Shown here piece after piece: positions 2,603 to 56,609 of a stretch of 64,000 nt of DNA; within the stretch, counting starts at the first letter, position 1; the number at the start of each line of letters is the position of its first letter. A program made the position numbers and the translations under genes. The stretch is from Hormiphora californensis (Eukaryota > Animalia > Ctenophora), in the NCBI GenBank assembly GCA_020137815.1, contig CM035353.1, positions 4,774,001-4,838,000 on the forward strand, in the 5' to 3' direction. Below the pieces are notes generated by a model. That model saw nothing but the letters and a program-made list of their open reading frames with translations. It made no database searches and was not told where the DNA came from.

Positions 2603-3194
2603 GAGGGAAATCATACGACTCTTACTGCAGTTAGCGACAATCGACAAAACAGACAGCATAACTCTTTTAAGCGACAGTGCTGAGTAATTTCTCAAAACTC
2701 TTATTCTTAGTGAGCAACAGGGAAAAGAATTGGGGAGAGAAAGTGAGAGACAGGGTGCCCCCTTGAGAGAGATTATCTCGCGCGGCGCTCTGGCACGTGC
2801 GGTTTGGGCGCTGGCAGGCTTTTACATGTTTACAGAGCGCCGCGCGCTACTATCTTGCTCTCTCTCACTCACTAGCTGCATTCTGATTGGCTGTTATCGA
2901 TCACATGTACGCAGTCACAGGCTATCCCTGTGCACTAGGACTTATCACGTGACCTTTCACGTGACCAGATCCTGTGATCCCCTGTCAGTTAAGAGTTTTA
3001 AGAGTTTATACGTCGCTAAGTAGCGGCGCTTACCACACAAGAGAATGGAATCACCATTATCTTACTCTTGATATCTCTTACAAGAAAATAAGAGTTATTT
3101 TGGAAAACAGTCAGCACCTGTCGCTTACTCCAGTAAGCGATTGCGAAATCAATCAGCACCTGCTAACTTCAGTAAGAGTCGTATGATATCCCTC
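2603..3194. mobile_element. Non-autonomous TIR element, 3-bp CAG TSD (Harbinger-like)
   Basis: TIRs gagggaaatcatacgactcttactgcagttagc / gctaacttcagtaagagtcgtatgatatccctc; CAG at 2600-2602 and 3195-3197. Confidence 0.7.
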
Positions 3195-3197
3195 CAG

Positions 3198-4440
3198 GAC
3201 AGCAGTTACCACAGGAGGTACCCTCACATTTGCGGACGATACGAAAATACGACGCGCCATTGAAGGGCTTGAGGATACGGATACGCTCCAGAGAGACCTC
3301 GATAGGATTGCAGAATGGTCCAGAAGGAACAATATGCAACTGCATGCTGAAAAGTTTGAGGTGCTCAACTACAGGCTTAATCACACCAAGGAGCAAAGAG
3401 CCCTTCCTCAGGCTATAAGCATACTGATCGTGATGATCATAATCAGGTCAGTGTGCGGAGATTTTGATGATCACCATCAAAGAAGCGCTCACACTGATGG
3501 TTAATGGTTATCATCATGATGGAGGCTTGATGCATCATGATGCTCTCAAACCATAGTGTGTTCACGTTTGATCATCATAAACCATAGTGTGCGCAGGTTT
3601 GATCATCATAAACCATACTCAACTTGTTGGAACTTGCCTTTTGATCATGATCATCATGACCAGTGTGCTCAGCATGATGATGCTATCTCCCCCTTGCCTC
3701 CTCTTGCCTAGTCGCGCACTCTGAGAGGCTGTTGCATATCACGTAACCTGTACAACAGCCTCTCGTGCGCGCGAAGTCGTACCACGTGGTACATGTCACA
3801 TGACTACAGTGCAGCCCTCCATAAGAATAAGATCAGAACGTGCGCACACTAGGTGTTGATGATCATCCAGGGCCAGCTCTTACGTGATGATCATAATGTT
3901 GCGCACACTGCAGTTTTTTGCAGATGATGATGATCAAAACCATGAGCACACTTCATCTTTTTAACTGATTATGATCATCACGATCAGTATGCTTATAGCC
4001 TCACACTGAGGAATGCTACCAATATACCAGCTCATCAGGGGAAATAATTGACCCATCACGCTGGGTGAAAGACCTAGGGATATACATGTCCTCCGATGGA
4101 AAATGGGCAAAGCACACTACAACCATCGCAAGGGAAGGAAAAAGACTAGTAGGATGGATTTTGGGGTGTTTAGAGATCGGGATGACATTTTATCGGGAAG
4201 AAGAGCGGGGCGGTGTAAAAGCTACTCGACCAAAGCTAATATATATATATAACGGATGCACAGGACTCCGTGAAATCGCTTAGAGATGAATCATTCAATA
4301 TGAAAGCTGCTCAACTCTTCAACAGAATGCCAAAAATCGTACAACGATGTACAACTCTAGAAACTGGGAAATATGCTTGAAACCATTCCCGTCTACCCTC
4401 CTTCGTAACAACTCGCTCGTCGCTCTGCTAAAGGAAGGCA
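3198..4440 (+). pseudogene. CR1/L2-like LINE reverse transcriptase remnant, split by a MITE
   Basis: LTFADDTKIRRAIEGLEDTDTLQRDLDRIAEWSRRNNMQLHAEKFEVL (FADD at 3229-3240), continuing after the MITE as ..VKDLGIYMSSDGKWAKHTTTIAREGKRLVGWILG. Confidence 0.85.
3411..4000. mobile_element. PIF/Harbinger-like MITE, TCA TSD
   Basis: TIR ggctataagcatactgatcgtgatgatcataatcag and its reverse complement at 3965-4000; TCA on both sides; interior rich in tgatca/catcatga motifs. Confidence 0.85.
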
Positions 4441-4811
4441 TATAAAAAAGCTCACTTCACATTTCACAACCACTTCACGCGGATACATTAGTTGAGTGCG
4501 TGGTATATTCTTGTGTTATGTATACCGAAACTAATGTGTAAATCTTGTAAAATACTGCAAGTAAAATCTTTATGATTATCCAAATTGCAGCAAAGGAAAG
4601 ACCAACGCAGCGAAAAAGAAAAAGGGTCAAGTTCAACGGAGCGAGCAAATTTATATTGAAGTGAGCAGTTATGTTTTTGTTTCTGAGGTCCAGCAATTAG
4701 TTTTATTGAGAAGAATCTCCCGGCAAAGCAAAAGTACATGAACATTATTGTTGAGCCAGTTCTAGTTATTTCTAGAAATTTGTTTTTAATCTTACTTTCC
4801 ATCAAACTTAA

Positions 4812-5040
4812 AGGTCCTCCCAAACTACTATGTCCCTTGCTGCGCGCGACCGGATTTTAGACGGCCATAGCTCCACCCCCTGATAAGATAGAGACTTGAA
4901 ATTTTGAAATTTGTGAGGAGATCATGTCGAGTTCTTCCTACAAAACAAATTTCAAGTCTCTATCTCATCAGGGAGTGGAGTTATGACCGTGGGAAATTTC
5001 ACAAAACCCGAGTGAGGGACATAGTAGTTTGGGGTGTACT
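4812..5040. mobile_element. TTAA-flanked MITE (Kolobok-like)
   Basis: TTAA at 4808-4811 and 5041-5044; AG termini; imperfect long inverted arms cccaaactactatgtccct..gatagagacttgaaattt. Confidence 0.7.
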
Positions 5041-5418
5041 TTAATTATTTCTCAATTATACAATCATAGATTATACAAACATAGCTGAAATTCTACATAA
5101 CTTTGAGTGGCATTCCTGGCATTGGGGAAGGTTTCGGAGATACCGAGGACACCGAGGCGGGCGTTGGGAATTATACCATTTACCCCATCAATGCTCAGCC
5201 AACCATATATTAAATTTTAACTGTCATTTCTCGTTCAGAGTACTCCAAGAAGACCCCATCTGAAGGATGACATTGAGGATGTAGTAACCCTGGGCCGCCC
5301 CCAGCCTCTGGCTCCCAGTGTCACCCCCCCCTTTTAAATTTTTTATCCGTTACCACCTTAGTAGTATTAGTTATAGCTTATATTATAATTTGTTACCGTT
5401 ATAGATTCAGTTGTTGCA

Positions 5419-5964
5419 ATGGAAAGTGTACTGCTGGAAAGACTACAGTGTCCTGTGTGCGATGATATTAGAACCTGCATAAATGGGCATATTGTGTGTG
5501 CCGATTGTTTGACCAAACTGGATCCTAGGGTCTGTCCGATGTGCCGAGGTGAATTGCCAGAAGTAAGGCATTTGATTTTGGAAGAATTGGCCGCTCTGCT
5601 ACCAGACCCCCCTGCACCCCCTGTCTGTCCTGAGTGCGGGTGCCCTGTTCCTAGGGATGAGATAGAGGTTCACCTCTTGGTGTTTCACCGTGCCGAGAGG
5701 ATTGCAGCCGAGTCGGCCAGGATCACACTGAGCTCCGAGGAGGTGGGCAGCCATGGGATGGTTCTATTAGGAAACCCGGCTGTGGTAATTATGCTAGAGC
5801 CAGGAACTGTACAAGTAATGAACCTGGGTGACAGACGTCGTACGTTTGGGTTCTGTGGACCCCAATTGGAGGAAATCCAGGCGATGGTTTTAGAGCCGGG
5901 GGAGATGTCCCCATTATCATCAATGAACTTGGGGAGAACTTTTCTAGTCGGGCTTCCGGAGTGA
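5419..5964 (+). CDS. Sina/SIAH-like RING finger protein with a second zinc finger (putative E3 ligase), 181 aa
   Basis: CPVC-x5-CxNGHxxCxxC..CPMCR (C3HC4 RING with shortened first loop), RHLILEEL as in Sina, then CPEC..HLLVFH. Intronless, intact, GC-richer than its flanks. Confidence 0.8.
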   Translation: MESVLLERLQCPVCDDIRTCINGHIVCADCLTKLDPRVCPMCRGELPEVRHLILEELAALLPDPPAPPVCPECGCPVPRDEIEVHLLVFHRAERIAAESARITLSSEEVGSHGMVLLGNPAVVIMLEPGTVQVMNLGDRRRTFGFCGPQLEEIQAMVLEPGEMSPLSSMNLGRTFLVGLPE

Positions 5965-6178
5965 TCTCTCTCTGTCTGGCGGCGCCAGACCGAGTAATCT
6001 GTAGTGTTAAATTATACAGTTGTATTAGTTTATGTATTATGTAATTAACTTCTTCTTTTTATTCTTTTATTAGCTATTGGCATTATGCACTACTTTGCAC
6101 CTCCTGCCTCTGTAACCTTTGTAAATTGTATGTCTTGTTCTTTGGAAGTTAACCCCTCTCCACTCTCCCAATCTAGCG

Positions 6179-8254
6179 ATGTTTTGTTGGTGGATCATCT
6201 TACTCACCATTTCGGCCGGGCTGGAGAAGATTGAGGAATGGGAGGAGACTAGGCAGTTCTACCAAACCTCAGATGTGTTGACCAAAGAAGAGCTAGGTAT
6301 CGCTCTATTACCAGATAAACTTCTGGTGACTGCAGAGGAGACCCTCCTGCAATCCGTGTTCCTGAGTGTCAAGATTCCTCCCACCCCCCGAAGTCCGTGT
6401 AACCTGCCTTGTACCCCAGATCTGGAAGTTATTGGACGAAAAGTACCACCCCAGAGCAATGGTGCTTGGATCAAGCAGATGGCAGTCCAGTCAGCTACCG
6501 TGATTGACAAGCTGAAGGTGAGCATTGCAGCTGAGTGTGTATCAGAGTGCCTTGCGGCCAGGCGGTGCAACCAAATCTCCTTTGATTACGCCTCGGGGCT
6601 GTGTCAGCTGGAAACTGGACAGAGTTACAGTGCCGGAAACATCAACCCATCACTACCACCGCTACAGTACACCGCCCGTCTCCCTGTCTTGTTGCAGTAC
6701 ATGGAGATGGATCGTGAAGAGGCGTGTGGCTCAGGCAGGAATGATCTTCATAGCCGATTGGTAAGAGAGATGCAGGTAGTGAGGCGATCCATCCGCCGCA
6801 TGTACATTGACCGGTTTAGAGACCTACAACGGGCCTATGATTTTGGATCCAGTCAACCTGGGAGATCCAGACGGGACTGGGGAATATTCGATGTACTAGA
6901 GCATGTACCTATTGTCGGGCATTTTTACCAGATCCTAAAAAGTCCGGTAGAGAACCGAAAGGTGAAGGAACATCTGCATTCCCTGGAGAGCAGGTTTAAG
7001 AAGTTCTCGGCAGACACGATGAGCTACATGAACAGCATGAGGGAGTATGACGAGCAAGTCCTCAAGATCGTAGACCATGAAATAAACGAAGTTTACGAGC
7101 ACCTCAATGGGGTAAAGTGCGATGTAAATACCGTGGCCAACCTACTGTCGGAGATGATGGCTGACCGCTTGATCGAGCTAAAGATGAAGAGCTTGTTTTA
7201 TAGCTCGGCTCACGGGAAGCTTTCTGTTCCAGTAACAACTACACTCACCATCGAGGATTTGCGGAAAATTACATACAGCAACCCCCTGTTTGAAGATACG
7301 GTGTATCTCAGGAACCCTGAAATCCTCTATCGCCTGGCGGACCTAATGTTGATGGAGATAAAGGAGACACAAACTGACTTAATCTTCCACTTCTTGCTAG
7401 TGACGCCCAAGGTGAAACCCAACAACATTTACCAGACTTTCCAGGCAGTGTCCGTGCCGGTACAACATCCAGAAAATGCCCTCGAGTGCTACCAAGTTCG
7501 ACCGCCTGAGTTAATCATAGTTGATAACCGTCTGGCGTATGCAGTCGAGACCACACAATGTGTGGACAAAGATGGGGTGATATTCTGCCAACAGGAATTC
7601 ACAGATAAGTTCTCACCCTTGAAGACCAGGTGGAATTGTTTTAACGACGGGGACTATGAGTTTGAGGTGAGTTCGTGCGCCACCAAGATGATCTTTACCA
7701 AATTGGGCGGGCTCGTGTTTTCGCAGAAGGAGCTTCTTGGAATGCGAGTCCAGGATCGTTCGAGCCTCACAGTAATTGGGCAACCAGGGAAAACCACCCA
7801 TTTCATCCCGTGGAGTATGTACCAGATGATACAAAGTGATCGTATGGTAATGTACAGCGTTGACAGCAAACTGACATATCGTAACTTGTCATGGGACACT
7901 CCAGCAGAACTCCAGATGGTGAGGAAACAATTCCAGCTGGCCCACATCAAGCGAGATCGGGCAAACTTCACCAAATTAGCCAACAGCCTCCAAGAAACGG
8001 TGACCTTGGTGGAAGGAGACTACAAAATCGGGTACCTGGGTTTACCGGTCTCTAAACGAAATTTTTTTGAGATCCTCGGTTGGGCATCCCTCATCGCCAC
8101 CTGTTGCATGATCGTATCTTGCATCTTCAAGAGGTATCAAGAACACACCCTAGATATAATAGAGTCTCTGGTTGGGTTCAGCAATTGGTTTCTGAGCAGA
8201 GACAGGCGGCCCCAACTCCAGCCATCGAAGAGAAAAACGAGGAAGAAGAGGTGA
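6179..8254 (+). CDS. Class I F-type viral fusion (envelope) glycoprotein, 691 aa, with PAN/apple-like insert
   Basis: Signal peptide aa 1-14. C120-x3-C-x5-C-x11-C PAN pattern. Furin site RSRR at aa 229-232 (6863-6874), followed by the hydrophobic DWGIFDVLEHVPIVGHFYQIL and long heptad helices. Then LLVTP..IYQTFQAVSVPV plus a Cys-rich segment as in baculovirus F/errantivirus Env/paramyxovirus-like F. TM at ~aa 629-650; basic tail. Confidence 0.85.
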   Translation: MFCWWIILLTISAGLEKIEEWEETRQFYQTSDVLTKEELGIALLPDKLLVTAEETLLQSVFLSVKIPPTPRSPCNLPCTPDLEVIGRKVPPQSNGAWIKQMAVQSATVIDKLKVSIAAECVSECLAARRCNQISFDYASGLCQLETGQSYSAGNINPSLPPLQYTARLPVLLQYMEMDREEACGSGRNDLHSRLVREMQVVRRSIRRMYIDRFRDLQRAYDFGSSQPGRSRRDWGIFDVLEHVPIVGHFYQILKSPVENRKVKEHLHSLESRFKKFSADTMSYMNSMREYDEQVLKIVDHEINEVYEHLNGVKCDVNTVANLLSEMMADRLIELKMKSLFYSSAHGKLSVPVTTTLTIEDLRKITYSNPLFEDTVYLRNPEILYRLADLMLMEIKETQTDLIFHFLLVTPKVKPNNIYQTFQAVSVPVQHPENALECYQVRPPELIIVDNRLAYAVETTQCVDKDGVIFCQQEFTDKFSPLKTRWNCFNDGDYEFEVSSCATKMIFTKLGGLVFSQKELLGMRVQDRSSLTVIGQPGKTTHFIPWSMYQMIQSDRMVMYSVDSKLTYRNLSWDTPAELQMVRKQFQLAHIKRDRANFTKLANSLQETVTLVEGDYKIGYLGLPVSKRNFFEILGWASLIATCCMIVSCIFKRYQEHTLDIIESLVGFSNWFLSRDRRPQLQPSKRKTRKKR

Positions 8255-8907
8255 TGAATGAAGGGGAGGTGTTGAAGGAGGTCGAGGTGTTGAAGGAGGA
8301 GGAATAGGCTAGTCGAGTTCTGCTTTACCCCGTTTTGCCCCCCGCCTCTGCTGCTACTAATGGACGCTCTCTCTCTGACTATTTCACCCAACAGCTTCAA
8401 GGATCTATGGTGCAGCACACTGTCACGATGAGGAGCCGGGCCACGGCTTTCATACCCCCTCCTGAAGACGCGGAGTTACCTCCCCTGGAGTTCCCTGGTT
8501 TCTGGTGCGCATGCACCCAGACCCCGGAAGAGTTAAATCTCCCGTGGAGAATTTATGATTCGGAGAGGTTTTTCTCTTGGCCGCTCATCATTAGGCTAAT
8601 AGATACCATCATGGACGGGAGACAGCGGTGGTCCAGGTCCCACTCTACTGCAGCAAAAGAGAGATTGAAGAGGGACATTGAAGACAATAAGAGAGAGATC
8701 CTGACACTGTTGAGAAGGAGGTTGAGGTCGATGAGAGGAGCGAGTGTGAGGTCTGGCAGAGCCGCAGAAATGAGGAGGAGGCTTTTCAGGATTCTGGATC
8801 CACTTCTAGACTGTTTAAATCCGGAAACTCCGGTCATGATCACCTGTCAAGGAATGTACGATGCCGTAGTCGGTATGATTCTTTTGACGCAGGAGGAAGA
8901 ATGGTGA
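8254..8907 (+). CDS. Accessory ORF of unknown function (likely start ATG 8254 overlapping the F stop; one in-frame TAG at 8305-8307)
   Basis: TGATG overlap; MNEGEVLKEVEVLKEEE* is in frame with ORF 8335..8907; homologous fragments at ~47300-47510 and ~52380-52580 show it is coding. Confidence 0.65.
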
Positions 8908-9012
8908 GGAGGTCACGGGCACTGTTGTCGGCACAATAGCTGCACGTGACCGGCCGACCCGATAAAGGAGAAATATAGAAAACAATTGGGAAGATTTACG
9001 TGAGAAAGGTAC

Positions 9013-9040
9013 TATAAAAGTTAGTTTATTACCCTCAGTT
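9013..9040 (+). promoter_or_regulatory. TATA box plus Inr-like TCAGTT upstream of the micro-gene
   Basis: TATAAAAG at 9013-9020, TCAGTT at 9035-9040, Kozak-like gccaaccATGa at 9048. Confidence 0.5.
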
Positions 9041-9047
9041 GCCAACC

Positions 9048-9492
9048 ATGAATTGCTGCGAATGTTACTTGTCAGTAGGCGAACTAATTAATATTAATGC
9101 AGTCGCCTACTGGCCTGCATATTGTGATTCCGTCGCAATCAGAGTTTATATTCCATGGCGTGAGGAATACCTTTTCCTCACGCCATGCGAAGTCGCCCGT
9201 ACTGCTTTGAATGTAAGTTTATCATCTATATTAATATATTTTATTATATTGACTGCCTTTGTTTCTTTTTACGCTAAAATATGTTTTAAATACTCGTTTC
9301 CCTTCAGATTTTTGAAACTTGTTATAACGACGAGGAGATGGTGGATCAAGCACTGAACTTGATTGGTGAAGTAAGTTTGAATCTGTACATATATGCTAGC
9401 AATTACCCTCCCCTCTGCCCCCCCCCCTTGTTTTAATATTCGCTTGATTTAGTTTTATAACAATAAACCTCTTTCAGGGATCAAGCTATTGA
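9048..9492 (+). CDS. Three-exon ~80-aa Cys-containing micro-protein (exons 9048-9212, 9308-9370, 9478-9492)
   Basis: Two GTAAGT donors and ttcAG acceptors, all phase 0, giving the open frame MNCCECYLSV..ARTALN-IFETCYNDEEMVDQALNLIGE-GSSY*. Confidence 0.55.
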
Positions 9493-9866
9493 TGACACAT
9501 GCTCCAGGACTGCCCGGATCACCAACTCGCTGCTTCGTGTCTTGATTTGTGGCAAAACTTACACTGATATGCCTCAACACCAACAATTCCTGGTTGTCAA
9601 GCATCCTTCCTGATCCTCTCCATACTCCTCTGTACCCCTCCCTTGCTCATAACGAGCAAGTCAATATCGGATCCTTCTGTCACCGTATTGTGTGTCACCG
9701 TATTGTTTGTCATTGTTTGTCATTGAGCCAAAGGGCCTGCATGCTAAGGGTATGCCCTGCAGGATCTCCATAAACTCTGTCCTCATTCTATTTAAATATA
9801 TTTGTTATTTGTTATATGTAGTAATTATTTACCCTTAAAAAATTAATGTGTTTAATTTGTTTGGTG

Positions 9867-10113
9867 ATTAACATGGTGTTACATTTACTTAACCTGGGAT
9901 TAGCATGGTGTTACACCAAATAGCACCAAATCAATTAATTATAATTAATTGAAATTAATTATAATGAATAATTAACACATATCACATGGTGTGACGTCAT
10001 GAATCACGTGATCTGTAGTTGAGCACAGTCATGTGACGTCATGAATCACGTAACTGCGCTCAGAAATGAGGACAGTCACGTGACTGTCCTCATTACACGG
10101 TTTTCCAACTACT
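9867..10113 (-). mobile_element. Polinton/Maverick-type terminal repeat (right end), copy 1
   Basis: Minus strand starts 5'-AGTAGTTGGAAAACCGTGTAATGAG. Contains a 30-bp perfect palindrome (10065-10094) and repeated TGACGTCA/CACGTG motifs. Homology with the 26176 and 43855 copies ends at the ACTACT. Confidence 0.65.
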
Positions 10114-10685: not shown

Positions 10686-12457
10686 ATAGATGTGTGTCTG
10701 TCAACTATCCCTGTCTGACTTTATCGCCCTCCTCCTCCGGGGTATTATATCCTGGCAGCAGGATTGTAACGGTCTTGTTGTCAGGGTATTAATACTCTGG
10801 CGGGGGTGGGTGGATGCTACCCCATGCGATGTCACACGATCAGCTACTAATCTTGAGTTTGTTTAAGAATTTATATTTATTCACTAAATTAATTATTAAT
10901 TGTTTACTAAAATAATTATTAACATCTAACTTTTTTGCAGAAAATTTTGAGGACCCCAACTCTGGGGAATGGCATGAGGTATTGCTCCTCCTTCCCCTAA
11001 CCCTCAGCCCCCCGCTCGAAGAAGAAGAGGAAGATAGCTTTTTTTACAAAAAATTTAAAACAGAGAAAATAAAATATATATAGTTATTCATTCGTTCCTC
11101 CAATGTCCATACGGTCGGGTGGTCACTCCGACAATGGCCGTTATGGAGGCAGAGAACCAGCAGGCTCAATTCGAGCTCCAACTAGATCCTATAGTCCTTA
11201 AAGACATCGAAGTCGTCCTAAAACCACTGGCGCTGAAAGTGTTTTTGCGTCAGTATTTTTGTCATCACATATACCCGACATGAGTAGGTTCCGATGTAAA
11301 AGGAAATCAGACGTTCACTAAATTAATTATTAATTGTTTACTAAACTAATTATTAACATCTAACTTCATTGAAGATATTAGAATGCACGGAGTCCGGTGA
11401 CATACCATAACGGAGCATGAGCGTAGAAGAAAGTACCAGAGGCCCTCCAACCACTTCCCCTCCCAGGACCCCCACAAGCAGGAGGAACCAGGAAGTCCAG
11501 AAGGAATGGTATGAAGAGGCAATGAATCTCTAGATTGCTCCTCCTTCCCCTAACCCTTAGCCCTCCGCTCTTCAAGATAGCCCAGAGGAGAAGCAGCGGT
11601 TGCTGAAGACAACGCTGTGGACCGGGGTTACGGATTGCAAAATCGCCATGGAGATTGCAGAGGTGCTGGAGTCGGACTTTGCCCGGATAGATGTGTGTCT
11701 GTCAACTATCACTGTCTGACTTTATCGCCCTCCTCCTCCGGGGTATATCCTGGCAGCTTGTAACGGTCTTGTTATCAGGGTATTAATACTCTGGTGGGGG
11801 TGGCCGGTGGGTGGATGCTACCCCGTGCGATGTCACCCGATCAGCTAAAGAAGTTACACCCTTAGCTACGTATGTACTAATCTTGAGTTTGTTTAAGAAT
11901 TTATATTTATTCACTAAATTAATTATTAATTGTTTACTAAATAATTATTAACATCTAACTTCTTTGCAGATTTTGGAGGATCCCAACTCTGGGGAATGGC
12001 ATGATGAGGTATTGCTCTTCCTTCCCCTAACCCTCAGCCCCCCGCTCGAAGAAGAAGAGGAAGATAGCTTTTTTTACAAAAAATTTAAAACAGAGAAAAT
12101 AAAATATATATAATTATTCATTCGTTCCTCCAATGTCCATACGGTCGGGTGGTCACTCCGACAATGGCCGTTATGGAGGCAGAGAACCAGCAGGCTCAAT
12201 TCGAGCTCCAACTAGATCCTATAGTCCTTAAAGACATCGAAGTCGTCCTAAAACCACAACGTTACGTCGCTGCTGGCGCTGAAAGTGTTTTTGCGTCAGT
12301 ATTTTTGTCATCACATATACACGACATGAGTACGTTCCGATGTAAAAGGAAATCAGACGTTCACTAAATTAATTATTAATTGTTTACTAAACTAATTATT
12401 ATCATGTAACTTCATTGCAGATATTGGAAATTGGAATGCACGGAGTCCGGTGACATA
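10686..12457 (+). repeat. Tandem duplication of a ~720-770 bp module (10686-11404 / 11687-12457)
   Basis: Near-identical blocks, including atggaggcagagaaccagcaggctcaattcgagctcc and AT-rich introns. Confidence 0.9.
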
Positions 12458-12907: not shown

Positions 12908-13556
12908 CTCCAACTCCCCAAATACTAGCACATGGTATATATAGGATCGGCCGACAATCTCTTGAAAGTTATTCGAAATCAAAAGCATTTCCAAGAATCA
13001 AGCAAAGGAATAAGTTGTGTAAAGTACAACTGGATAATTTCTTGGACGGTCCATTGCTTCAGTGATAAGACGTGGAAATGTTTCTGGAATCCACTCGGAT
13101 TGCAGTCTTTATCTTTGTTTTAACGAAGATATCAAGATACCTATCCACAAGGAGTGTCATGTACTGTTGTTCGCAAAGTGAAGAAGGGAATCCGTCCCAA
13201 CGTGATACTCGTAAGTTTATTCGGGTGGAGAATCCACGTAACATATGTGATACCTCGCCTTTTCTCTCCCTTTTATTGTATAATCCTCCCCTACAGTGTG
13301 TTATCTTATTCAAGCCTATCCCGGGCTACGAATCTACCGACGGCGATGATGATGACGCGGACGAATCGGTAATTGTATTGCCGGAGGAAGAGGAGGAAGC
13401 TACCGAGGAAGCTACCCAGGATCTATTCGGTGGAGGAAAGAGAAGTAAGATGTTCACTATATCTATCATGTATGTACATAGCTATTCATTTGTTTCATAA
13501 TAGAAACTACCGACGAATGATAATATCATTTGCTTCACACCTGTTTAAGGATATAT
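12465..13556 (+). repeat. Tandem duplication (12465-12850 / 13147-13556) of an acidic-exon module, with (TA)n at 12848-12904
   Basis: Both copies encode ..DDDDESVIVLPEEEEE..ATQDLFGGGKR followed by gtaaga. Confidence 0.9.
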
Positions 13557-19035: not shown

Positions 19036-19377
19036 TTAAAATTCATAAAAAAAGCTCTCTTCTTCTTCGAGCGGGGGGGGGGGGGGGGGGGGGGGGCTAA
19101 GGGTTAGGGGAAGGAGGGGGGGGTACCAACCATTTTTGTGTACGGATGTACGGAAAAAGCAGGCAATATTTTTTTGTACAGTCCGTACAAAAAAATACAA
19201 AAAAGTTTACTGCTGTCGGGAACTTTTTTGGTGCCTTCTACAGGTCTCTAGAGGCGCTCGAGGTCCTTCTATTATTAGCCTCTAGAGTGTTTATTTAGTT
19301 TATTTTACCATTCCCCGTCCCCACGACTCCTAACTAGAACAAGTCTTACTAATGTGCAGAAATTCATAGCATTAGCG

Positions 19378-19587
19378 ATGCCTAAATACACGACATGCAA
19401 GCAATGGAAATGCAAAAAGTGCCGATTTACGAACAAGGGAACAAGCCTCACATGTGAGAGGTGTCGTGACAAGAAAGAGAATGGAATGTCACTCGATAGG
19501 CTGCCGGGGGACTGGCTTTGCAAAAGATGCCAGGTTTCTAACTTTGCTCGCAGAACAAGATGTTACGGATGTGGAGAATCCCGATAG
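19378..19587 (+). CDS. 69-aa protein made of two RanBP2-type zinc fingers
   Basis: WKCKKCRFTNKGTSLTCERC and GDWLCKRCQVSNFARRTRCYGC, both matching W-x-C-x2-C-x3-N-x6-C-x2-C; intact ATG to TAG. Confidence 0.8.
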   Translation: MPKYTTCKQWKCKKCRFTNKGTSLTCERCRDKKENGMSLDRLPGDWLCKRCQVSNFARRTRCYGCGESR

Positions 19588-23300: not shown

Positions 23301-24986
23301 CTTATAAATGTAAACAATTAAATTTCAATAACTATAAATATTTTTCTCTATCTAAAAAGTACCCCTGATTCTACTTTCATCCAAAAAGTTGGAGACAGAG
23401 TTGTCATGGAGTGCATCTAACGAAAACATTCAAAGCAGTCCGGAATGTACAGCTTGCAGCTGTACAAGTGCATTTGTCCTAAACCAAACAAACGAATCAA
23501 TGGTATGTAATTACTGCAATGTACAGTAAAGAACAGAACCTGATAGTAGTATATCATATATATAATATTTTCATAATTTCATTTTATTTATATTTAATAT
23601 TCAACCCTCCCTTCCGCTCCTTATAAGAGGATTATGATTGTTTTATTCCACCAAGAATAAACGGGAAAAGAGAAAACTATACATTTTAGTATGGTACCTA
23701 CAGCAAAAAATATACACAATATCAACATATTGCAAATAAAACTGAACTTCTGGGTTAGCATCCAGCATTTATCGCCAAAAGAGCAGGAGATTAAGGTATG
23801 TTCTATTTATTTATAATTCCAAATATTTGAGTTTGTTTGAAAACTCACATCATTTTTCTACCGCTTCAGAATAAGGAAAGAAATAACTGGATTCACATTC
23901 AACGACAAAATACGTGGAGAGAAAACCACCTGTCTCCGACTTACGACCCGGCTCACCCCACCTGTTAATGCGACGGGTGGGGGAGCGGGTAAATATGTAA
24001 AAATATAAATATAAATATTTAGGTATCAAAGTTTCCATTATTTTGTAATGCGGTGCCTTCTCAAAGGAGAGCCGGTGATGGTAACAGGGAAATTATAGGT
24101 CTCTAACTCCACGAGTTTTATTAATAATGCTAAGTACGCCTTCACAACTGATGAAGATTCCTGATTCACCGGTGGAAATGGAAGCTGGAGGACCGTTAGA
24201 GGGGAAATAAGGAGGTGGCGGTATAAACCAGGTGGAACAACCTGAGCGAGGAGGAAACGGGAAGTGTTCAACGTAGAAGAGTATTGCGATTAGTAGGGAC
24301 GAATCTTAATTTTTTGACACACTATTTGGTGAAGAGAAAATTTCAGTTGTAACGGGTAACCCAGCTATTTTGAACTTCTTTTGATAAGAAATTCATCCCT
24401 ACTAGTTAAGATGAAAAATATGAAACAAAAACATAACGCGGAGATGACGAGAATCCTAACAAAGTTAAATTTGGCGCTTGGGGAATTGGAGGGAATGAAG
24501 GTAAAGAATGAAGATCTGAAGCAAAAGTTAAGAGTTGAGGAGAGAGCCAGGGAACATCCAGTGACGGCGGACATGGGATTACTGAATATAATGCCAACTT
24601 TAGAAAGTACAATTTATACACAAACTATCTCAATTACAACAATATGTGGGGCAGGGAGTTTTGTACAGATTTTAGCATAATGTGAACACTGAATATAATT
24701 TCAGAAATGGGGTTTGTGGACGAATTTTGAAGTGCCCTGCTGAAAAAAAGAAGATCGCCCAAACTGCTCTGATTGACTGTGTGATATATCGAACAGTGTC
24801 TACTATGGGAGATGTGACTGGGACAATACCTGTGCGGGGAGGGAGACGGTAGTGTAGCTGTTGAAAAATATACACAATATCAACATATTGCAAATAAAAC
24901 TGAACTTCTGGGTTAGCATCCAGCATTTATCGCCAAAAGAGCAGGAGATTAAGGTATGTTCTATTTATAATTTATAATTCAACATA

Positions 24987-25132
24987 CAGTCGGACCCCGA
25001 TTTACCGGGAACCTTGGGGGAAAGGGTTTTGTCTGGTAAATCGGGGTGCCCGGTATATCGGGGTCAAATCCCAATATTGGGGGAAATTTATCCTCCCGGT
25101 AAATCAGGGTCCGGTAAATCGGGGTCCGACTG
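24987..25132. mobile_element. Tc1/mariner/pogo-type MITE, TA TSD
   Basis: TIR cagtcggaccccgatttaccgg; TA on both sides; the empty paralogous site is visible at ~23820. Confidence 0.9.
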
Positions 25133-26087
25133 TATTTGAGTTGGTTTGAAAACTCACATCATTTTTCTACCGCTTCAGAATAAGGAAAGAAATGACTGGA
25201 TGCACATTCAACGACAAAATACGTGAAGAGAAAACCAAAAAAATACTAAAACTCTTTACAAATTATATGAAGAAGCCAAAATCGAAAATTTAGAACATAA
25301 ATATAAAGATGTAAAGAAAGAAAGAGATAGTTTAAAAGATGAAAATGAAAATTTGTTAAAAGAAATTGAAAGATTAAAGATGGAGTTAGCCAAAAAGGAA
25401 AAAGGACAGGGTGAGGCAACATACATGGCTAACCTGGTGCTGCCAGAGTTGGGGACTGACGTATTTTCAGAAATCGACCTCAACCTTGGATATACCACAA
25501 CTTGGGCTGAATAAGGTAAGCTACTGCTGCATTATAGAGGGGTAAAACAAGTAACGAAGAGCAGTTGACAACTACAGTCAACAAAAGCTCCGCTCACAAG
25601 ATAAAGAACAGGAACTGGTTTCCGAGAATTAAAAACTGCTTCTTGTACAAGCAATTTCCGTCCAATCAATGAATGTGCAGCTATCATATTATACAATATA
25701 TTTCATAGTTATATTTGATTTATATCTAATAAAACCCTCCCTTCCACTCCTTATAAGAGGATTATGATTATGTTATTCCACAAAGAATAAACGGGAAAAG
25801 AGAAAACTATACATTTTCTTCAGTGACAGCGAAACGGAGGAAATTAATTCTTTCTTTCTAGATATTTGAAAGTGAAGATCTAACGAGCTTAGCTTATCAT
25901 GATGCAAAGGAGATGAAGGAGATTTACAAATGTAATAATTAATAAGCAACATCCGTCAATGTTAATTATATACTGGGTTTAATTTTGTATGAAAGTGACT
26001 ATCGCCAAATCAATTATATATGATATAATTTCAGTTATTATATTAACCGGTAGATATAACAATGTTACTGGATTCTTTAACATACTT

Positions 26088-26176
26088 GAATCACGTGACG
26101 TCATAAATCACGTGATTAAAGCCGTGTAATGAGCACAGTCACCTGAATACGCTCATTACACGGTTTTCCAACTACT
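26088..26176 (-). mobile_element. Polinton/Maverick-type terminal repeat (right end), copy 2
   Basis: ..tcacgtgacgtcat..ccgtgtaatgagc..gctcattacacggttttccaactact; same terminal 25 nt as copy 1. Confidence 0.6.
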
Positions 26177-26461
26177 ATCAAGTAAGTTAAGGGGATCCTG
26201 AAGATGGCTGATAAGCTTGATAATAAGTTGATCGCCACAGAAGGCAAAATATGAAGCGAACATAAGAGCGGCAAAAAATATATTAAAAGAATGGAAGAAC
26301 GGTTGAAGGAGGAAGGAGGAGATGGCGACAAAGACGACAGTTGTAGAGGACCGGATAGTAGTAGAGGACCAGATGAACAACGAAAGATGGCAGTCGCTGG
26401 ATCTGGAGTTCCACTAGCTATATTGCTGCAAAGGAGCTCACACATGAACGCTAGCCCTCAG

Positions 26462-26590
26462 AATCTTTATGGCTGGAGTATGTCACAACCGCTACCAGTA
26501 GATGGATTAAAATGGGTTACCACAACCAACTGGAATCATGAAACTTTAAATGAACTAGAAATGAAAGAGGGAATGATTCTAGAAGTTGAT
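26462..26590 (+). pseudogene. Protein-primed DNA polymerase B (Polinton/adintovirus-type) motif-A fragment
   Basis: NLYGWSMSQPLPVDGLKW..GMILEVD matches the DANNLYGWAMSQxLPxxxFKW..GYILEVDL segment of PolB2. Confidence 0.85.
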
Positions 26591-27389
26591 GGCTCTCTCT
26601 CTCTCCCACACAACAATCACAGATGAAATGATTTCCCCATTTTCAGGGGGGGGGGGGGTTACGTCGGCCTTAATTTATAATATTAAATAAAGTATACAGC
26701 ATAAATCATTGGAATCAATCACTTGTAAATGAGAATTATAATTCTGTTGCCAAGTTAGACTGTTATTCACGCGCCCCGTACAAAACAATAATTCTGATGA
26801 TGAATATGTATATTGTATAGACTATAGACTATAGTCTATACAATATAAATATTCATCAGGGCCACTTGCAGCTGCCCCTTTCAAGGTAAAAAACTAGCAA
26901 TTTAGTTTGATGAACTAACGAAATAATAGCTCATCAAATCAGATTCTTATAGAGATGCTAGATTGGAAAAAGCAATGGAGGTAAAAAATTGGCTTCTATT
27001 CTTCTGAATCGTGAAGGATATATGTTGTACATATTCGCAACCTCAAAATCTACGTTAAGGAGGGAGCAAAAGTTACCAGTGTATCAAGAGCTATTTCTTT
27101 CAACGAAAGTTGTTGGTTGAAATGATATTATATAAACGCTAATACAGAGAGAAGGAGAATGGCAATCGACGACTTGGTGGACTGCAAAATTAAACTATTT
27201 AATTATAATTTTATTTATTTTAAAATAATTAAACGAGTTGCAAAGATAAAGCTAGCTTCCTATGAAACTAGGAGGAGTTAAATCCAATGTGTACCTGTGT
27301 GAAGCTTACACCACGAACCCAAGGATCTTGGAAGCCGAACTTGAGGCACCAGGTAAAAATAATTCCAAACCACACCTTTGTCGTCGGCA

Positions 27390-27986
27390 TATACTGTGTG
27401 ATTTTAAATGACTGAGACTGGTATATTGCGAATTGCGTGAAAACTATGGCATCTTTTGACTTCAAATTTTGGGACATGATAAAACTAGGTTGTAGCAATT
27501 TTCTCCTAGATTTACAGCAAATTTCAATGTTCCTGAATGAATCTATTGCCCAAAAACCTCCTCCAACTTTACACAGTCATATCTCTGGAGTCTAATGAGA
27601 TAGAGAGTTCAAATTTTTAGGAGAGACAGATAAGACGATTTCGAATATTTTGTCTGCTTTACGAGTTGCTACATTTTACCATTTGTTCACAGGAACTGTT
27701 TAAAGTGATTTAACACGCTCTAATTAGGCCAAATTTAGGTCATTTTACCCCTCAAAGATCACATGTCCAGCTGCATCTAGTGGGCTAATGAGGCCTTGAA
27801 CACAGCTCTCCTTTTTCATCTTGAACCAGCAGACATGATCATGGTGTCTGGAAGTGGTAACAAGCTGTAGGATACCAGACAGACTAGATGCTCTCTACTT
27901 CAACGTATCACTCTCTCCCTTTCTCGTTATAAGGTCACGTGACTGGAATTTAGATCTGGACATGAGCGGGAGAGAGCTAGAGAGAG

Positions 27987-28062
<76 letters not shown>

Positions 28063-28676
28063 CGTTGTAGACATTGTGATCATGTCGAGATCCCAATTCC
28101 AGTTACGTGATATAACGAGAAAGGGAGAGAGTGATACGTTGAAGTAGAGAGCATCTAGTCTGTCTGGTTTTCTACAGCTTGTTACCACTTCCAGACACCA
28201 TGATCATGTCTGCTGGTTCAAGATGAAAAAGGAGAGCTGTAACGTGACGTACTGACGTATGCGTGTTCAAGGCCTCATTAGCCCACTAGATGCAGCTGGA
28301 CATGTGATCTTTGAGGGGTAAAATGACCTAAATTTGGCCTAATTAGAGCGTGTTACGTCACTTTAAACAGTTCCTGTGAACAAATGGTAAAATGTAGCAA
28401 CTCGTAAAGCAGACAAAATATTCGAAATCGTCTTATCTGTCTCTCCTAAAAATTTGAACTCTCTATCTCATTAGACTCCAGAGATATGACTGTGTAAAGT
28501 TGGAGGAGGTTTTTGGGCAATAGATTCATTCAGGAACATTGAAATTTGCTGTAAATCTAGGAAAAAATTGCTACAACCTAGTTTTATTATGTCCCAAAAT
28601 TTGAAGTCGAAAGATGCCATAGTTTTCACGCAATTCGCAATATACCAGTCCCAGTCATTTAAAATCACACAGTATA
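27390..28676. mobile_element. Foldback element with ~575-bp inverted arms and central (GA)n
   Basis: tatactgtgtgattttaaatgactg.. mirrored by ..cagtcatttaaaatcacacagtata; (GA)n at ~27994-28058. Confidence 0.9.
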
Positions 28677-32390: not shown

Positions 32391-32552
32391 AGTAGTATAT
32401 AAAATAGTACCGCTGTGACAAGATTCTGGTGTCACAACCATATTTGGGCATATCACGTGACATCACATGACGTCACATGATGTCACGTGATTTTGATGTT
32501 ACATGAAATCACTCGATCCGTGATGTGATATACCCAAATATGACGTCACATG
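32391..32552 (+). mobile_element. Possible Polinton-type left terminus of a different element
   Basis: Begins AGTAGT where a repeated coding module breaks off; clustered TGACGTCA/CACGTG motifs and short palindromes. Confidence 0.35.
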
Positions 32553-35249
32553 TCAAGGAGGAGATTGGTTGTACTCCTACTTTGGAGGAACGAAATGAGA
32601 GAAAACAGCTTGTTGACCGGTTGACTGACAACAAAAGTTATATCGGGCCCTCCGTCTCTATACACGCCAGAGACGCCAGCACTAGCAGTGACCCGAGCAG
32701 TGACTCCTCCAACAACAACGGACCCCCTCCGAACCGGCCTCCCTAGATTTACCAAAGAAAGATCGACAACATGGGGATGATCTCCAAAGCCATCAAGCTT
32801 AACATAATAGGGGATGTCATCACCAAATATTCTATACCCCCCCCCATGATCCTAATTAATATTATTCTTTATTTTCAGGATCAGTTCATTCCAGTCGTAC
32901 CAGTTGCACCAGTACAATGGAACACGCCCGTGCCGTCAACTTCATCAGCTCAGCAAGGATACCCTGAATTCACTCCCGTGCCGTCAACGTACGCAATGTT
33001 ACGATTCGATACAACATTTGATTCTTGTCTTGAGAAAGACGCTACAAGAGAGGACAGGCCATCAAAATCAAAGGTAACTTATTAGATAGAAAATTATATA
33101 GAGAATATAAATTAAATTAGTTAATATTCGACTGGATTGAATTCACATAAATACTTTTATTTTATTCATATTTAACATTTTTAAAACAAGCTAACCTCTC
33201 CATTCAATCGCAGTTATATCCTGTGGCCTTAAACTTAACCAGCGCTGAAAGAGATTTAATGGATATATTTGGGGTAAAGGAATATGGAAGATATCCTAAC
33301 TCGGACATCTATGAAGAAAATATGGGTAAGTTGGACCTACGAATCCACTAAGGAAGATAGCATGCAACGAAGTGCCACAAGTGCTCCCTGAGGATTGGAG
33401 GGAGCTGTTATCTACACGTTGATACTCAATTTTGTATTTCATCCACAGAACGAAAAGCCGACACTTGAAAGGATAAAAATACTAGAAGAAAAACTCGTCA
33501 TACTGGAAGCACGCCTTAATTCTCTCACTGAATCTACCGAAGTTGATTCAATAGATAGATTTCTAGAAAGTTTGTCAGTATGCTCTCACACAAAGACAGA
33601 TTATTAGATATCGAGAGATCAGTGATGTAAATTATATGTTATTTCCATATTTTAATTTGATGTGTCTGCCCACCCCCTGCCCCTGCCCGTCCCCACTGTC
33701 TAATCATTCTATATCCCTATCTCTGTAGCAATATTTCGATTCGATACAACATTTGACTCTTGTCTTGAGAAGGACGCTATCAAAGGACGCCATCAAAATC
33801 AAAGGTAACTTATTAGATAGAAAATTATATAGAGAAAATAAATTAAATAAATATTCGACTGGATTCAACAGCTCTAATTGATACTTTGGTGTACTATATG
33901 ACAACATCGGTTCTAGCAGGCCTGTTAAAACTGTATGAGAAGTTAGTGAACAGAGGGAAACAAAAAACTCCCAGGTCAAATGTGCTTGAAAAGGTTTATG
34001 GCCTAACGGTAAAGAAAGAGACAAAGTATCCCAGAGACGGTAAGTAAAAATTAGTTAAGGAATCAAGATACACTAGTGTATTCAATAAATATAAACACAT
34101 ACATACTTTTATTTTATTCATATTTAACATTTTTAAAACAAGCTAACCTCTCCATTCAATCGCAGTTATATCCTGTGGCCTTAAACTTAACCAGCGCTGA
34201 AAGAGATTCAATGGATATATTTGGGGTAAAGGAACATGTATGCTTGGGCATGTTCGGGATATCTTCCATATATATGGAAGATATCCTAACTCGGACATCT
34301 ATGAAGAAACACATATATATCCTCCCCAGGACCTCCGGGGGACTCCTTTCCCTGATACATTATTCCCCCGTGACGAAGTCAAAGGGCAGCAAAAGTATAC
34401 TTGTATTGACCACTATGGAACCTATAGAGGTAAAGGAACATGGAAGATATCCTGACTCGGACATCTATGAAGAAACACATTATATATCCTCCCCAGGACA
34501 GGTTGGAGCCCTAACCGAGGAAATAGTGGACAGGATGAGTCAGCCCACCCCTAAGTGCGAAAATGAAGTGCCACAAGTGCTCCCTGAGGATTGGAGGGAG
34601 CACTACAATACATGTCACCCCGAGCTACGCCCCATCTGGCGACATCTATGAAGAAAGTACATATTATCTGATTACTACATTTATTATAGCTTCCTTGTCT
34701 GTGTTATATATAGTGAGATTATGTAATAACATTTCCATTCTTTTATATGATGATAAAGATGATGATAAAGAGATTTCCTGGACGAACTATATATACCTAT
34801 ATATATTTATAAACTAATTAGCTTATTATATCCTTAGAACACTAAGAAAAGATTCATTATAAGATGCTTGTTTTTAGATATTTAAAGGAATTGGTAGACC
34901 CGGAGGTTGTCGTGATAGACCTCCGGGAGTTCTACACGTTCCCACGGGAGCTCCACGCTCCCACTACATTCTGGATACGCTACATCTCATTCATCGATGT
35001 ACTGGGGGTGGATGATGATCTTGATAGCGCCGACAAAATCTCCAGAATGACAATTAGGGGAAACCCGAGATATTGTGGTGGATTAAAGGGGCTTTTCTTT
35101 TCATTTCCAGGTGTATTCTGTGGCTCAAGAGATGACTGCTGGTGAGAAATACACCATGGACAAATTAGGGCTGCCATACAGTGGGGAAACACCTGGCCCT
35201 AACGGGTTTCAGGAAGGTAAATTATATCTGACTCACTACATAAAATTAA

Positions 35250-39796: not shown

Positions 39797-40788
39797 GGTC
39801 CCTTTTTGGTTTCTAATCGCAGCATGACACTATTTCATGATTTAATATTGTCGAAATGATGCGCTATATGAGAAACGAGACGAATTTCTGTGAAAATCGT
39901 ATTTTAGACGTCATAATGACGTCATTTGACGTAATTAGTGACGTCGTAACGACGTAATTGCATCACGATATATTTTTAATCAATACCCCAAAGGAGCTTG
40001 TAAAGTTTCATTGACCACAGTGGTCAGGAAAGGGAGTTTTTGCTCGAAAAACGTTCAATTTGCTGAATTTTTCGTCAAATTTTTGACTTCCGACGCGATT
40101 TAAGGGCTCAAAATGATAAGCTACGAAAATTCGCTATAGTGAATCTGAAAGTTCAGACGATTTGCCGGTAACGATTTTTCGTCAAATCAGAAATCGGAAC
40201 ACGTCTTCAGGGTGCTAGAGGCGTTTGAAAAAAGTTAGTCGGTCTCGCGCAATGACGTCACTCATGACGTCACTGCGCGCGTCATAGATAAGATGGAGAG
40301 TCGCCACCCAGATGGGTACATGCACGAGACAATTGTCTGTCGAATGCCGCTTGGTTTAAGGTCGTACAATGTCTGGTTCGTCTCAAACTGGGACAAAACG
40401 GAAGGTAACAAAGCGTCTATCCATGTATGTATGTATCAACCTAGTTATCCCCACACTGAATTTTCTGTTTTGGGGGTGGTGTTATAACTTTTGAACAAAA
40501 AGAGCCAGTCACTTGAAATTTTTACCATCGATAGAGGTCTACAAGAAGCTTCTAAGTACAAAATTTCAGCTTCCTAGCTCTTCCGGTTCGGGAGTTATGG
40601 CATATCAAAAAGTGCCAAAATGGGCTAAAAGTATGAAATAACTATATATACGCTGTGAGCAAGCGGGCCGTTTTTGGGGGAAATTTTTTTCGGGGGATGG
40701 ATGGGGTCACCTTTGCGCTTGCCAGCGCAGTGATAATATATTCATACTATTTCCTCGGTCCATATCATCTGCACTTATTTTTGTTTAC

Positions 40789-40955: not shown

Positions 40956-41583
40956 CTGAAGTGCCACACGTGCTCCCTGAGGATTGGAGGGAGCACTACA
41001 ATACATGTCACCCCGAGCTACGCCCCATCTGGCGACAACTAATATTCTTTCATTTAGGTACGTAATTATGCAGTTGTGTTTGAACCTCAGGGTTCAGCTA
41101 TTTTCCACTGAGACCTAGGGTTCAGGTATCGTTGCCTCTCCTCTATAGTTTATTCTATAGAAATCTAACACTGTTATCAATCAGGTCTGATACGATACAT
41201 CCAGTGCCGTGGTATCAGCTCGGAATCTGCCGAGACACTCCTGTGGCTGCACATGTGATAAAAAATGGACTGAAATTATTGCGACCGATTTGGCGACATC
41301 TCATATTCTCGGAATTCGGTATGGCATTCTGATCTATATATTTTGTTTATACGTATACTTTTATTTCAGATTATTTTTTCATGTACAAAGTTTGCTAATT
41401 ATTCTCTATTTATAGCAGAATAGTCCTCCCCTCCACAAATACAGGGGCAGGTTGGAGCTCTAAAAGAGAAGAAGGGAGGTTGATAAGACGGAACAGCCAG
41501 CTCCAAAGTACCTAGAATAAATATAATTAATAGAGAATTAATATAAAATATTCCTCAGTTTTTACCATTATATGGATCATATA

Positions 41584-43099
41584 CAGGGTGTCCCATATAT
41601 TCTCCGGGTCGGTTGGCGAGCTGTCACGCAAAAACGGTGATAGTTGTGTGAAAACAAACTGCGGGAGTGTGCTGGATTAATTCCTTCCTAACTGATGGCT
41701 TTGTTTTAAAATTAAATTTCAAAAGTTCATTTTTCATGAATGAACATTGCTGCCGTTCATTCATGAATTCTGAAATATTGTTTACCTTGAGTAAGTAACT
41801 TTTCTTTGGCTCGCAATTATCTTTCCATTGAGCACCATAAAACTCAAATTGAAGCACCAGGTCACATGACAGTTGAGAAAATGAACATGCATGATTTTGG
41901 CTCTTTTTGCGACTTTCAATCGGCTGTATCACCGCTACCTTACCTTCAATCTTTTTGAAACTTTGGGTGAACATTGGATAAGCAAAGATCTTTGCTCACA
42001 AGAAAAATCAAGGTCAAAACTCAAAGTTCATTTTTAAGTTTTGGTAGTTCATTCCACTCATTCAGGAACCAACAACCCTAAAGTGATGGAAAAGTGTTGG
42101 ATTTTGTTTGGCCAATGTCCTGCAATGACAGAGAGGTGTAGTAACGTGTTTCCGGGCTAGTTAGTGGGTGTCCATGTGATCTTGGTGATACCTGACACCT
42201 TCACTGAGCAATAATCAAGGGATTTTCACGAATTCAAGCATGTGATTTGGGTTTTCTGTGATTGGTATCGTGCAGCAATGTTAAGAGATCTCATAGCCCC
42301 TCGAAAATGATGGTTAGTTCAATGAAATGAGTTGATTTATGATCGAAAATGGTCGTTGAGTTCAATGTGGCATCGGTTTTAATCTTATTGATCATAAATC
42401 AACTCAATTTATTCAACTTATCATCATTTTTGAGGTGCTATGTGATCTCTCAAGATTGCTGCACGATACCAATCGCAGTAGACCCGAATCACATGCTTGA
42501 ATTCGTGAAAATCCCTTGATTATTGCTCAGTGAAGGTGTCAGGTATCACCAAGATCACATGGACACCCACTAACTAGCCCGGAAACACGTTACTACACCT
42601 CTCTGTCATTGCAGGACATTGGCCAAACAAAATCTAACACTTTTCCATCACTTTAGGGTTGTTGGTTCCTGAATGAGTGGAATGAACTACCAAAACTTAA
42701 AAATGAACTTTGAGTTTTGACCTTGATTTTTCTTGTGAGCAAAGGTAGCGGTGATACAGCCGATTGAAAGTCGCAAAAAGAGCCAAAATCATGCATGTTC
42801 ATTTTCTCAACTGTCATGTGACCTGGTGCTTCAATTTGAGTTTTATGGTGCTCAATGGAAAGATAATTGCGAGCCAAAGAAAAGTTACTTACTCAAGGTA
42901 AACAATATTTCAGAATTCATGAATGAACGGCAGCAATGTTCATTCATGAAAAATGAACTTTTGAAATTTAATTTTAAAACAAAGCCATCAGTTAGGAAGG
43001 AATTAATCCAGCACACTCCCGCAGTTTGTTTTCACACAACTATCACCGTTTTTGCGTGACAGCTCGCCAACCGACCCGGAGAATATATGGGACACCCTG
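41584..43099. mobile_element. Tc1/mariner-type foldback element, TA TSD, ~750-bp inverted arms
   Basis: TA|cagggtgtcccatatattctccgggtcgg .. ccgacccggagaatatatgggacaccctg|TA. Confidence 0.9.
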
Positions 43100-43637
43100 T
43101 ACAGACAACGGAAGTTGGGATATACATGTAGTACCACCTTTGTCCCCGACAATTGGAGACAAATACAAATTAAAAGTTTGGTGAAAAGATGACAAAAATG
43201 ATAATAGCTTTCGCAATGAGTGATAACTTTTTACCATACTACATTGTTTTGAAACTTGATCACCGTAGGTTTTGGAAATACCACCACCCTTAACCCTAAA
43301 AAGCACGCCGAAAATCGAAATCGAATTGCTCACTACCAATTGGATATTCAGCCTTCGGACAACGACTTTGTCGGTTCGCGTCATCACTGATCGACAACCT
43401 GGGAAACGGCGTGCCACTAACAGGCGACTTCTTCATAAGTTCACCAATGATCTTTCGAACATGAGCCTTTTAGTGCCGCTTGGAGCCGTGGATAAGTCCG
43501 AACAGTCCGACCGTTGAGAAATGCACAAGGAGATTTTCGAAGTATCGACTTTTGGTAATTGTATTTCCCTAATTAATAAGTTTAATTTTGAACAACGGGG
43601 GGAACAAGAAATACAAGTTTCTTTGGAAGCCAATCTC

Positions 43638-43855
43638 ATTAACATGGTGTTACATTTATTTAACCAGGGATCAGCATGGTGTTACACCAAATAGCACTAA
43701 ATCAATTAATTGCAATTAATTGCAATTAATTGAAATGGGATTGAAAGTTATAGTGAATAATTAACACATATCACATGGTGTGACGTCATGGATCACGTGA
43801 TCTGCAATTAAGCGCAGTCATGTGACGGCGCTCATTGCACACTTTTCCGACTATT
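43638..43855 (-). mobile_element. Polinton/Maverick-type terminal repeat (right end), copy 3, diverged
   Basis: Colinear with 9867-10113 from attaacatggtgttaca to ttttccgactatt. Confidence 0.6.
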
Positions 43856-43865
43856 CATACCGATC

Positions 43866-45736: not shown

Positions 45737-45764
45737 GTTTTCGGCTCTAAATCTATTTTTAGTA

Positions 45765-56584: not shown

Positions 56585-56609
56585 GGGTCTAACTGATGAT
56601 CCAATCTTT

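Follow-up and report, generated by a model that had tools for sequence, protein, structure and literature searches.

A predicted class I F-type fusogen gene beside a Maverick-type terminus in the ctenophore Hormiphora californensis

Organisation of the locus

A 64,000-nucleotide stretch of the genome of the ctenophore Hormiphora californensis (GenBank assembly GCA_020137815.1, contig CM035353.1, positions 4,774,001 to 4,838,000 of the forward strand; hereafter, the window) contains a 4.7-kb block, referred to below as the cassette. On one strand, the cassette carries a RING gene, a gene for a predicted class I fusion glycoprotein (F), an orphan open reading frame (ORF) and a predicted micro-gene, separated by AT-rich spacers, and it closes with an AGTAGT-type terminus. 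The original prediction, which took the block for the right arm of a Polinton-like DNA element with a captured fusogen, had named the RING gene, F, a spliced micro-gene and a terminal repeat of about 250 bp, and all four were located, the micro-gene as a candidate. The window as a whole holds four F pieces from two F subfamilies (the intact gene included), four AGTAGT-type ends and a remnant of protein-primed DNA polymerase B (pPolB); gag-pol was not detected in it. The features are listed in Table 1.

Table 1. Positions of the features recognised in the window
Feature	Position	Strand	Remarks
Sina/TRAF-like RING zinc-finger gene	5419–5964	+	181 aa
Pyrimidine tract ending in AG, predicted 3′ splice acceptor (cis or trans)	6036–6073	+	about 105 nt 5′ of F start
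Predicted class I (paramyxo/pneumovirus-type) fusion glycoprotein F	6179–8254	+	691 aa, no internal stop
PAN/apple domain in N-terminal (F2-like) subunit of F	6497–6649	+	PF00024, E 2e-5, 24.8 bits, cut-off 21.4
Acidic 78-codon frame over F tail	8071–8304	+	no early ATG
Orphan accessory ORF	8308–8907	+	first ATG 8407, 166 aa from ATG
Predicted three-exon micro-gene	9048–9545	+	80 or 96 aa depending on donor
Maverick-type terminus, 247 bp	9867–10113	−	5′-AGTAGT on minus strand; CRE/E-box cluster, subterminal palindrome
Two duplicated N-terminal F fragments, different F subfamily	11137–11315, 12149–12361	+	E ~1e-9 to P0034/P0153
GIY-YIG fragment	12929–13120
Double RanBP2-type zinc finger	19279–19584
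Diverged terminus copy 2	25938–26176	−	67% identity, 222 columns; right boundary shared
Decayed pPolB	26444–27272	+	stops and frameshift; E 6e-15, reversed control empty
Opposite-facing AGTAGT end, related family	32391–32650	+	begins at exact break of another repeat
Terminus copy 3	43638–43855	−	84% identity, 190 columns; last bases degenerate (ACTATT)
DUF6589 fragment	43801–44034
Sister F fragment	45538–45741	+	68% aa identity
Sister fragment of orphan ORF	47360–47497	+	repeated at 52434–52571
RNase H and zf-RVT of non-LTR element	53504–54342

The F glycoprotein

Judged by profile, by predicted fold and by its cleavage, helix and transmembrane features, the product of the stop-free F gene is a class I F-type fusogen, as had been proposed. 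The protein comprises an N-terminal hydrophobic stretch, a PAN insert, an RSRR motif (aa 229–232), heptad helices, a transmembrane segment at about aa 632–650 (predicted peak at 632) and a short basic tail. The cleavage region reads RSRR/DWGIF, with a conserved peptide directly after the furin-type site, and a basic cleavage site occupies this position in 11 of 12 close relatives. Pfam models were run over 300 of the 323 window segments of at least 60 aa and 150 of the 237 shorter plus-strand segments; within F, they identified only the PAN domain (aa 107–157). The F sequence itself gave no match to PF00523, whose cut-off is exceeded by 4 of 61 relatives.

The profile search yielded 245 relatives at E ≤ 0.001 (150 of them listed), and 119 sequences were taken into the alignment. 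The F-family profile matches F of human parainfluenza virus 3 with an E-value of 1.5e-9 (positions 133–558 of 626) and F of respiratory syncytial virus (RSV) with an E-value of 1.1e-8 over most of the profile length. A predicted structure of F (pLDDT 84, pTM 0.66) was compared with the PDB using Foldseek, and RSV F ranked first (E 6e-12, probability 1.0), with TM-scores of only 0.30/0.45; these low scores accompany an insert and mixed conformations. Among viral models, lispivirus, baculovirus and paramyxovirus fusogens came out on top. Atlas matches, all scoring 0.77–0.78 and all from F/env families, serve as leads only.

Among named proteins, those closest to F come from Mnemiopsis leidyi (two identical accessions, 35% identity over 95%) and Pleurobrachia bachei. 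A PAN insert was scored in 30 of the 78 long relatives, with a profile built from 13 of them, and the literature search surfaced no earlier description of a PAN-bearing F family. F probably functions in the manner of class I viral fusogens, with an attachment domain that is likely part of the protein itself. Since the FastTree phylogeny of F relatives has long branches and comprises no errantivirus or virus rows, no donor is claimed. A 49-codon upstream ORF in another frame (6049–6231) runs over the F start.

The AGTAGT-type terminus

The repeat that terminates the cassette contains the motif TGACGTCA at 9992 and 10034, CACGTG at 10005 and 10077 and, at 10065–10094, a perfect palindrome of 30 bp; ACTACT occupies 10108–10113. 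The end motif at 10113 is identical to the most frequent one of vertebrate Mavericks, 5′-(AGT)2//(ACT)2-3′ (PMC8097293). Further copies, expected from the original prediction, were found: three copies of 220–250 bp, 67–84% alike and all in the same orientation, end at one base, beyond which the outer flanks are unrelated. ACTACT closes two of the three. The fourth end faces the opposite way and starts where another repeat is cut, with 36 of 40 bases matching before the break at 32391 and 5–8 of 30 after it, versus 21–27 of 30 between uncut copies of that repeat. It carries the same block of cyclic AMP response element (CRE) and E-box motifs. In inverted orientation it is weakly similar to each of the three ends, at scores reached by 0, 5 and 6 of 1418 background windows.

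AGTAGT by itself occurs about as often as chance predicts (31 sites, with 28.9 expected); its count was therefore rejected as evidence, and the shared boundary was relied upon instead. The motif block is present at 3 of the 31 AGTAGT sites versus a background of 1.2% (P 0.006, by a criterion set after the sites had been seen). By eye, a paired change from G-C to C-G distinguishes the subterminal palindromes at 10065–10094 and 26118–26165; they fold as DNA hairpins of −13.4 and −15.3 kcal/mol, respectively (values without shuffle control).

Neither a primer-binding site (PBS) nor a polypurine tract (PPT) was recognised at the repeat: TGG follows none of the three terminus copies, and the purine runs before them measure only 2, 8 and 5. 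The sharp boundary and the opposite end at 32391 favour ends of the terminal inverted repeat (TIR) type over long terminal repeats (LTRs), and the repeat at 9867–10113 behaves as a real element end.

Pairings of 32391 with 43855 and of 22285 with 26176 (5/6 flank match) were rejected or proved to be at chance level. A Helitron 3′ end was also considered for the terminus; the hairpin is there and the CTRR end is not. Directly inside terminus copy 2 lie two related small coiled-coil genes (24360–25511), one of which has weak HALZ/bZIP matches in Pfam. Speculatively, the TGACGTCA motifs of the ends could be recognised by a product of bZIP type.

Core genes in the window

The single core gene recognised with a profile is the decayed pPolB. 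It bears out one of the PolB fragments claimed earlier; the others, at about 14.2–14.9 kb and 57.5–57.6 kb, show a likeness by eye only, without a profile score. The bits at about 14 kb resemble, again by eye only, adintovirus PolB in the supplement available for PMC11071296. The references for pPolB, rve integrase, A32 ATPase and capsid were drawn from Polinton-like contigs of IMG/VR (among them L010, L011 and L012, with pPolB, rve and/or A32 ATPase); the integrase, ATPase and capsid profiles had 2–5 sequences each. Pfam detected no PolB, integrase or capsid in the segments scanned.

The original prediction had seen no gag, reverse transcriptase (RT) or integrase next to F, and no LTR-type RT-RNaseH or rve remnant was detected in the window. 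A 63-row RT-RNaseH profile, built mostly from caulimovirid-sized records, reached an E-value of 0.2 at best in the window, and tblastn with five proteins gave no match there.

Genes flanking F and their sister fragments

The RING gene has two Pfam matches that stay below the cut-off, zf-RING_5 (E 1e-4) and Sina_RING (E 1e-3), and is likely an E3 ligase accessory gene. The GC content of the RING gene, F and the orphan ORF is 49–52%. Pyrimidine tracts ending in AG lie 5′ of both the RING gene and F; ctenophores use spliced-leader trans-splicing, and operons are not reported for them in the available text of PMC7986045.

An accessory ORF overlapping F had been predicted. The 199-codon ORF downstream does not overlap it, and the overlap belongs to the acidic frame over the F tail, which shares its reading frame with the 199-codon ORF, one stop lying between the two. 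No homologue of the orphan ORF was found among 213 candidates. The micro-gene has a TATA box, TATAAAAG, at 9013, an ATG at 9048 and candidate GT-AG introns at 9213–9307 and 9371–9477, predicted from sequence.

The sister F fragment (45538) is followed at a distance of 1.6 kb by that of the orphan ORF (47360), so that order and strand are those of the cassette. Their differences from the cassette genes are third-position-biased (4/4/25 and 18/15/30), which indicates that F and the orphan ORF evolved under selection, probably together. Judged by this synonymous bias, both are under purifying selection and the orphan ORF is a real coding gene.

A splice acceptor before env serves the production of subgenomic env RNA. 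The predicted acceptor 5′ of F would suit an origin of F as the env of a ctenophore Ty3/gypsy errantivirus that lost gag-pol and was brought beside a Maverick-type end by rearrangement. We consider this origin unlikely. The position immediately 5′ of F, where an errantivirus would be expected to have its integrase, is occupied by the RING gene; no RT-RNaseH or integrase remnant was found in the 64 kb despite the four F pieces, and the repeat has neither PBS nor PPT. The region is heavily rearranged, as such an origin supposes, and the contigs of F relatives do not exceed 12.2 kb. Errantiviruses with F-type env are on record from Beroe, Hormiphora, Mnemiopsis and Pleurobrachia (PMC13524379, as far as available), and the last two genera also supplied the named proteins closest to F. 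Some LTR elements have extra ORFs (PMC5408684, in part). The predicted spliced micro-gene with its own TATA box 3′ of F and the co-divergence of F with the orphan ORF argue against such an origin.

Interpretation of the cassette

On balance, we lean slightly towards reading the cassette as the right arm of a Maverick/Polinton-like DNA transposon that has lost its left part and carries F as cargo. Of the earlier proposal that F lies inside a Polinton, the adjacency to the terminus and the presence of pPolB in the window stood, while a left TIR, a target-site duplication (TSD) and linked core genes did not emerge; likewise, the repeat has the boundary and the end motif claimed for a Polinton TIR and lacks an inverted partner and a TSD.

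Several observations weigh against this assignment. The adjacency of F to the end is a single instance in a scrambled region, and at the second site, the end copy (43638–43855) lies 5′ of the F fragment, not 3′. The pPolB remnant is 16 kb from the cassette, directly outside end copy 2. No match to rve integrase, A32 ATPase or the major and minor (penton) capsid proteins was obtained in the window with small profiles of low sensitivity, nor to the protease, looked for by Pfam and one motif only. The window contains no full inverted copy of 9867–10113, no AGTAGT upstream of 10113 with a matching 6-bp flank and no left end of the cassette. Within the searched window, the cassette does not qualify as a Polinton by paired TIRs, by a TSD or by core genes. 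Related loci or flanks of F relatives or of the terminus were not found in viral contigs, metagenome contigs or prokaryote genomes. The metagenome contigs with the closest F relatives measure 2.3–12.2 kb, which fits the size of an errantivirus of about 13 kb, and F-type errantiviruses of about 13 kb appear in 6 of the 9 ctenophore rows of supplement 1 of PMC13524379, in the part available. Finally, a set of 12 close relatives has 16 conserved cysteines, of which F lacks 3, and the tail of F has 41 aa compared with 99–148 in 9 of these 12; given both features, F may be decaying.

The absence of any integrase, ATPase or capsid trace in the window, together with many small spliced accessory genes and the ends, would also suit an AGTAGT-ended element of a non-canonical kind, either a non-autonomous carrier moved by Maverick enzymes or an integrated piece of an enveloped DNA virus with such ends. 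F-type proteins are known in baculoviruses and malacoherpes/alloherpes viruses too. The sole DNA-virus core gene found is nevertheless a Polinton-type pPolB, and the scanned segments of at least 60 aa revealed no genes of herpesvirus, baculovirus or nucleocytoplasmic large DNA virus type; we regard this explanation as somewhat less probable again than an errantivirus origin.

If the cassette is indeed an arm of a Maverick/Polinton-like transposon, the element would have relied on a self-encoded rve integrase for integration and on pPolB for replication. F would enter the secretory pathway, be cut by furin at RSRR and form trimers in a membrane that surrounds the capsid, an arrangement already proposed for the fusogen of nematode Mavericks. 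The PAN domain could provide attachment within F itself, taking the role of a separate protein, and the CRE/E-box cluster in the terminus could act as a promoter or enhancer. The surrounding 60 kb would be a one-directional graveyard of older relatives.

To call the element enveloped is a further inference beyond the claim that F belongs to a Polinton. Tentatively, and with somewhat more doubt than confidence, we propose that ctenophores host enveloped Polintons/Mavericks with a PAN-bearing class I fusogen, a second independent capture after the gB-like one of nematodes. It is suggested with the same reserve that such Polintons would form a DNA-virus bridge for the exchange of F with errantiviruses. 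If true, the presence of such a fusogen in a Maverick from the animals that branched earliest would mean that envelopes were captured repeatedly, would add a route of horizontal transfer and would bear on the origin of the F-type fusogens of paramyxoviruses, baculoviruses and errantiviruses.

Comparison with known systems

Nematode Mavericks with MFUS-1 (PC1) resemble the cassette in having a Maverick-type end by intron-bearing cargo and a viral-type fusogen with signal and transmembrane segments (10.1101/2022.07.12.499685, PMC10748475, both in part). Intron-bearing cargo beside the TIR is described for them in the former. In contrast, MFUS-1 is of class III (herpes gB-like) and resides in complete elements, whereas here a class I protein with a PAN domain is found in an incomplete one. 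Whether Polintons form infectious particles, and whether envelopes are confined to those of nematodes, is left open in the available text of PMC10748475. The only adintovirus with a candidate envelope protein in the accessible part of PMC11071296 is of nematode source.

F-type env is widespread in Ty3/gypsy elements; that of errantiviruses shares with the H. californensis protein the fusogen class, furin site, fusion peptide and host phylum, but, compared by description, lies 3′ of gag-pol in elements that have paired LTRs and a PBS; all of these are missing here (PMC13524379, in part). Paramyxo- and pneumovirus F, lispivirus G and baculovirus F are alike in fold and profile match and differ in identity (8–14%); here, a PAN domain is inserted and the gene is encoded in host DNA. 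Vertebrate Mavericks share the (AGT)2//(ACT)2 end motif, and their copies are mostly decayed. Unlike the cassette, they have eight intronless ORFs, paired TIRs and a 6-bp TSD, and the word glycoprotein is absent from the paper (PMC8097293). No class I fusogen in a Polinton was encountered in the literature searched, which lay outside subscription papers, Repbase and some supplements and included the accessible parts of PMC11071296, PMC11131425, PMC11161782, 10.64898/2026.06.19.733378, 10.64898/2026.10.13.758929 and 10.1101/2025.02.07.637071.

Genomic setting

The window is eukaryotic in composition (about 41% GC), heavily rearranged and rich in duplications and foldbacks. One module is present in several duplicates with 90–99% identity at 46600–60900, and large foldbacks are located at 27390–28676 and 41582–43101. 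Recognisable gene pieces are almost all on the plus strand, and GTAAGT is distributed unevenly between the strands (29 vs 9, P 0.002). The whole window resembles a one-directional transposon trap.

This strong strand bias resembles that of a uni-strand PIWI-interacting RNA cluster, and no other long ORF has stayed unbroken in this decayed region besides F. Both would be in line with F having been co-opted by the host in a syncytin-like manner or kept as a template for antisense small RNAs, its neighbours being incidental. Such an explanation appears very improbable: like F, the RING gene and the orphan ORF are free of breaks, which is what a recent insertion would show, and the relatives of F are many, diverse and sometimes multi-copy, as is the case for mobile genes.

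On its left side, the cassette passes into a TTAA-flanked miniature inverted-repeat transposable element and debris of long interspersed nuclear element (LINE) type. Fragments at 3187–4450, which gave no match in Pfam, resemble the RT C-terminus of a CR1/L2-type LINE and probably lie outside the cassette. The left cassette edge is marked by a 237-bp element (4808–5044) with terminal inverted repeats, TTAA at each end and AG termini, which resembles a non-autonomous Kolobok; related bits occur at 27565–27616, 28450–28501 and 40502–40601.

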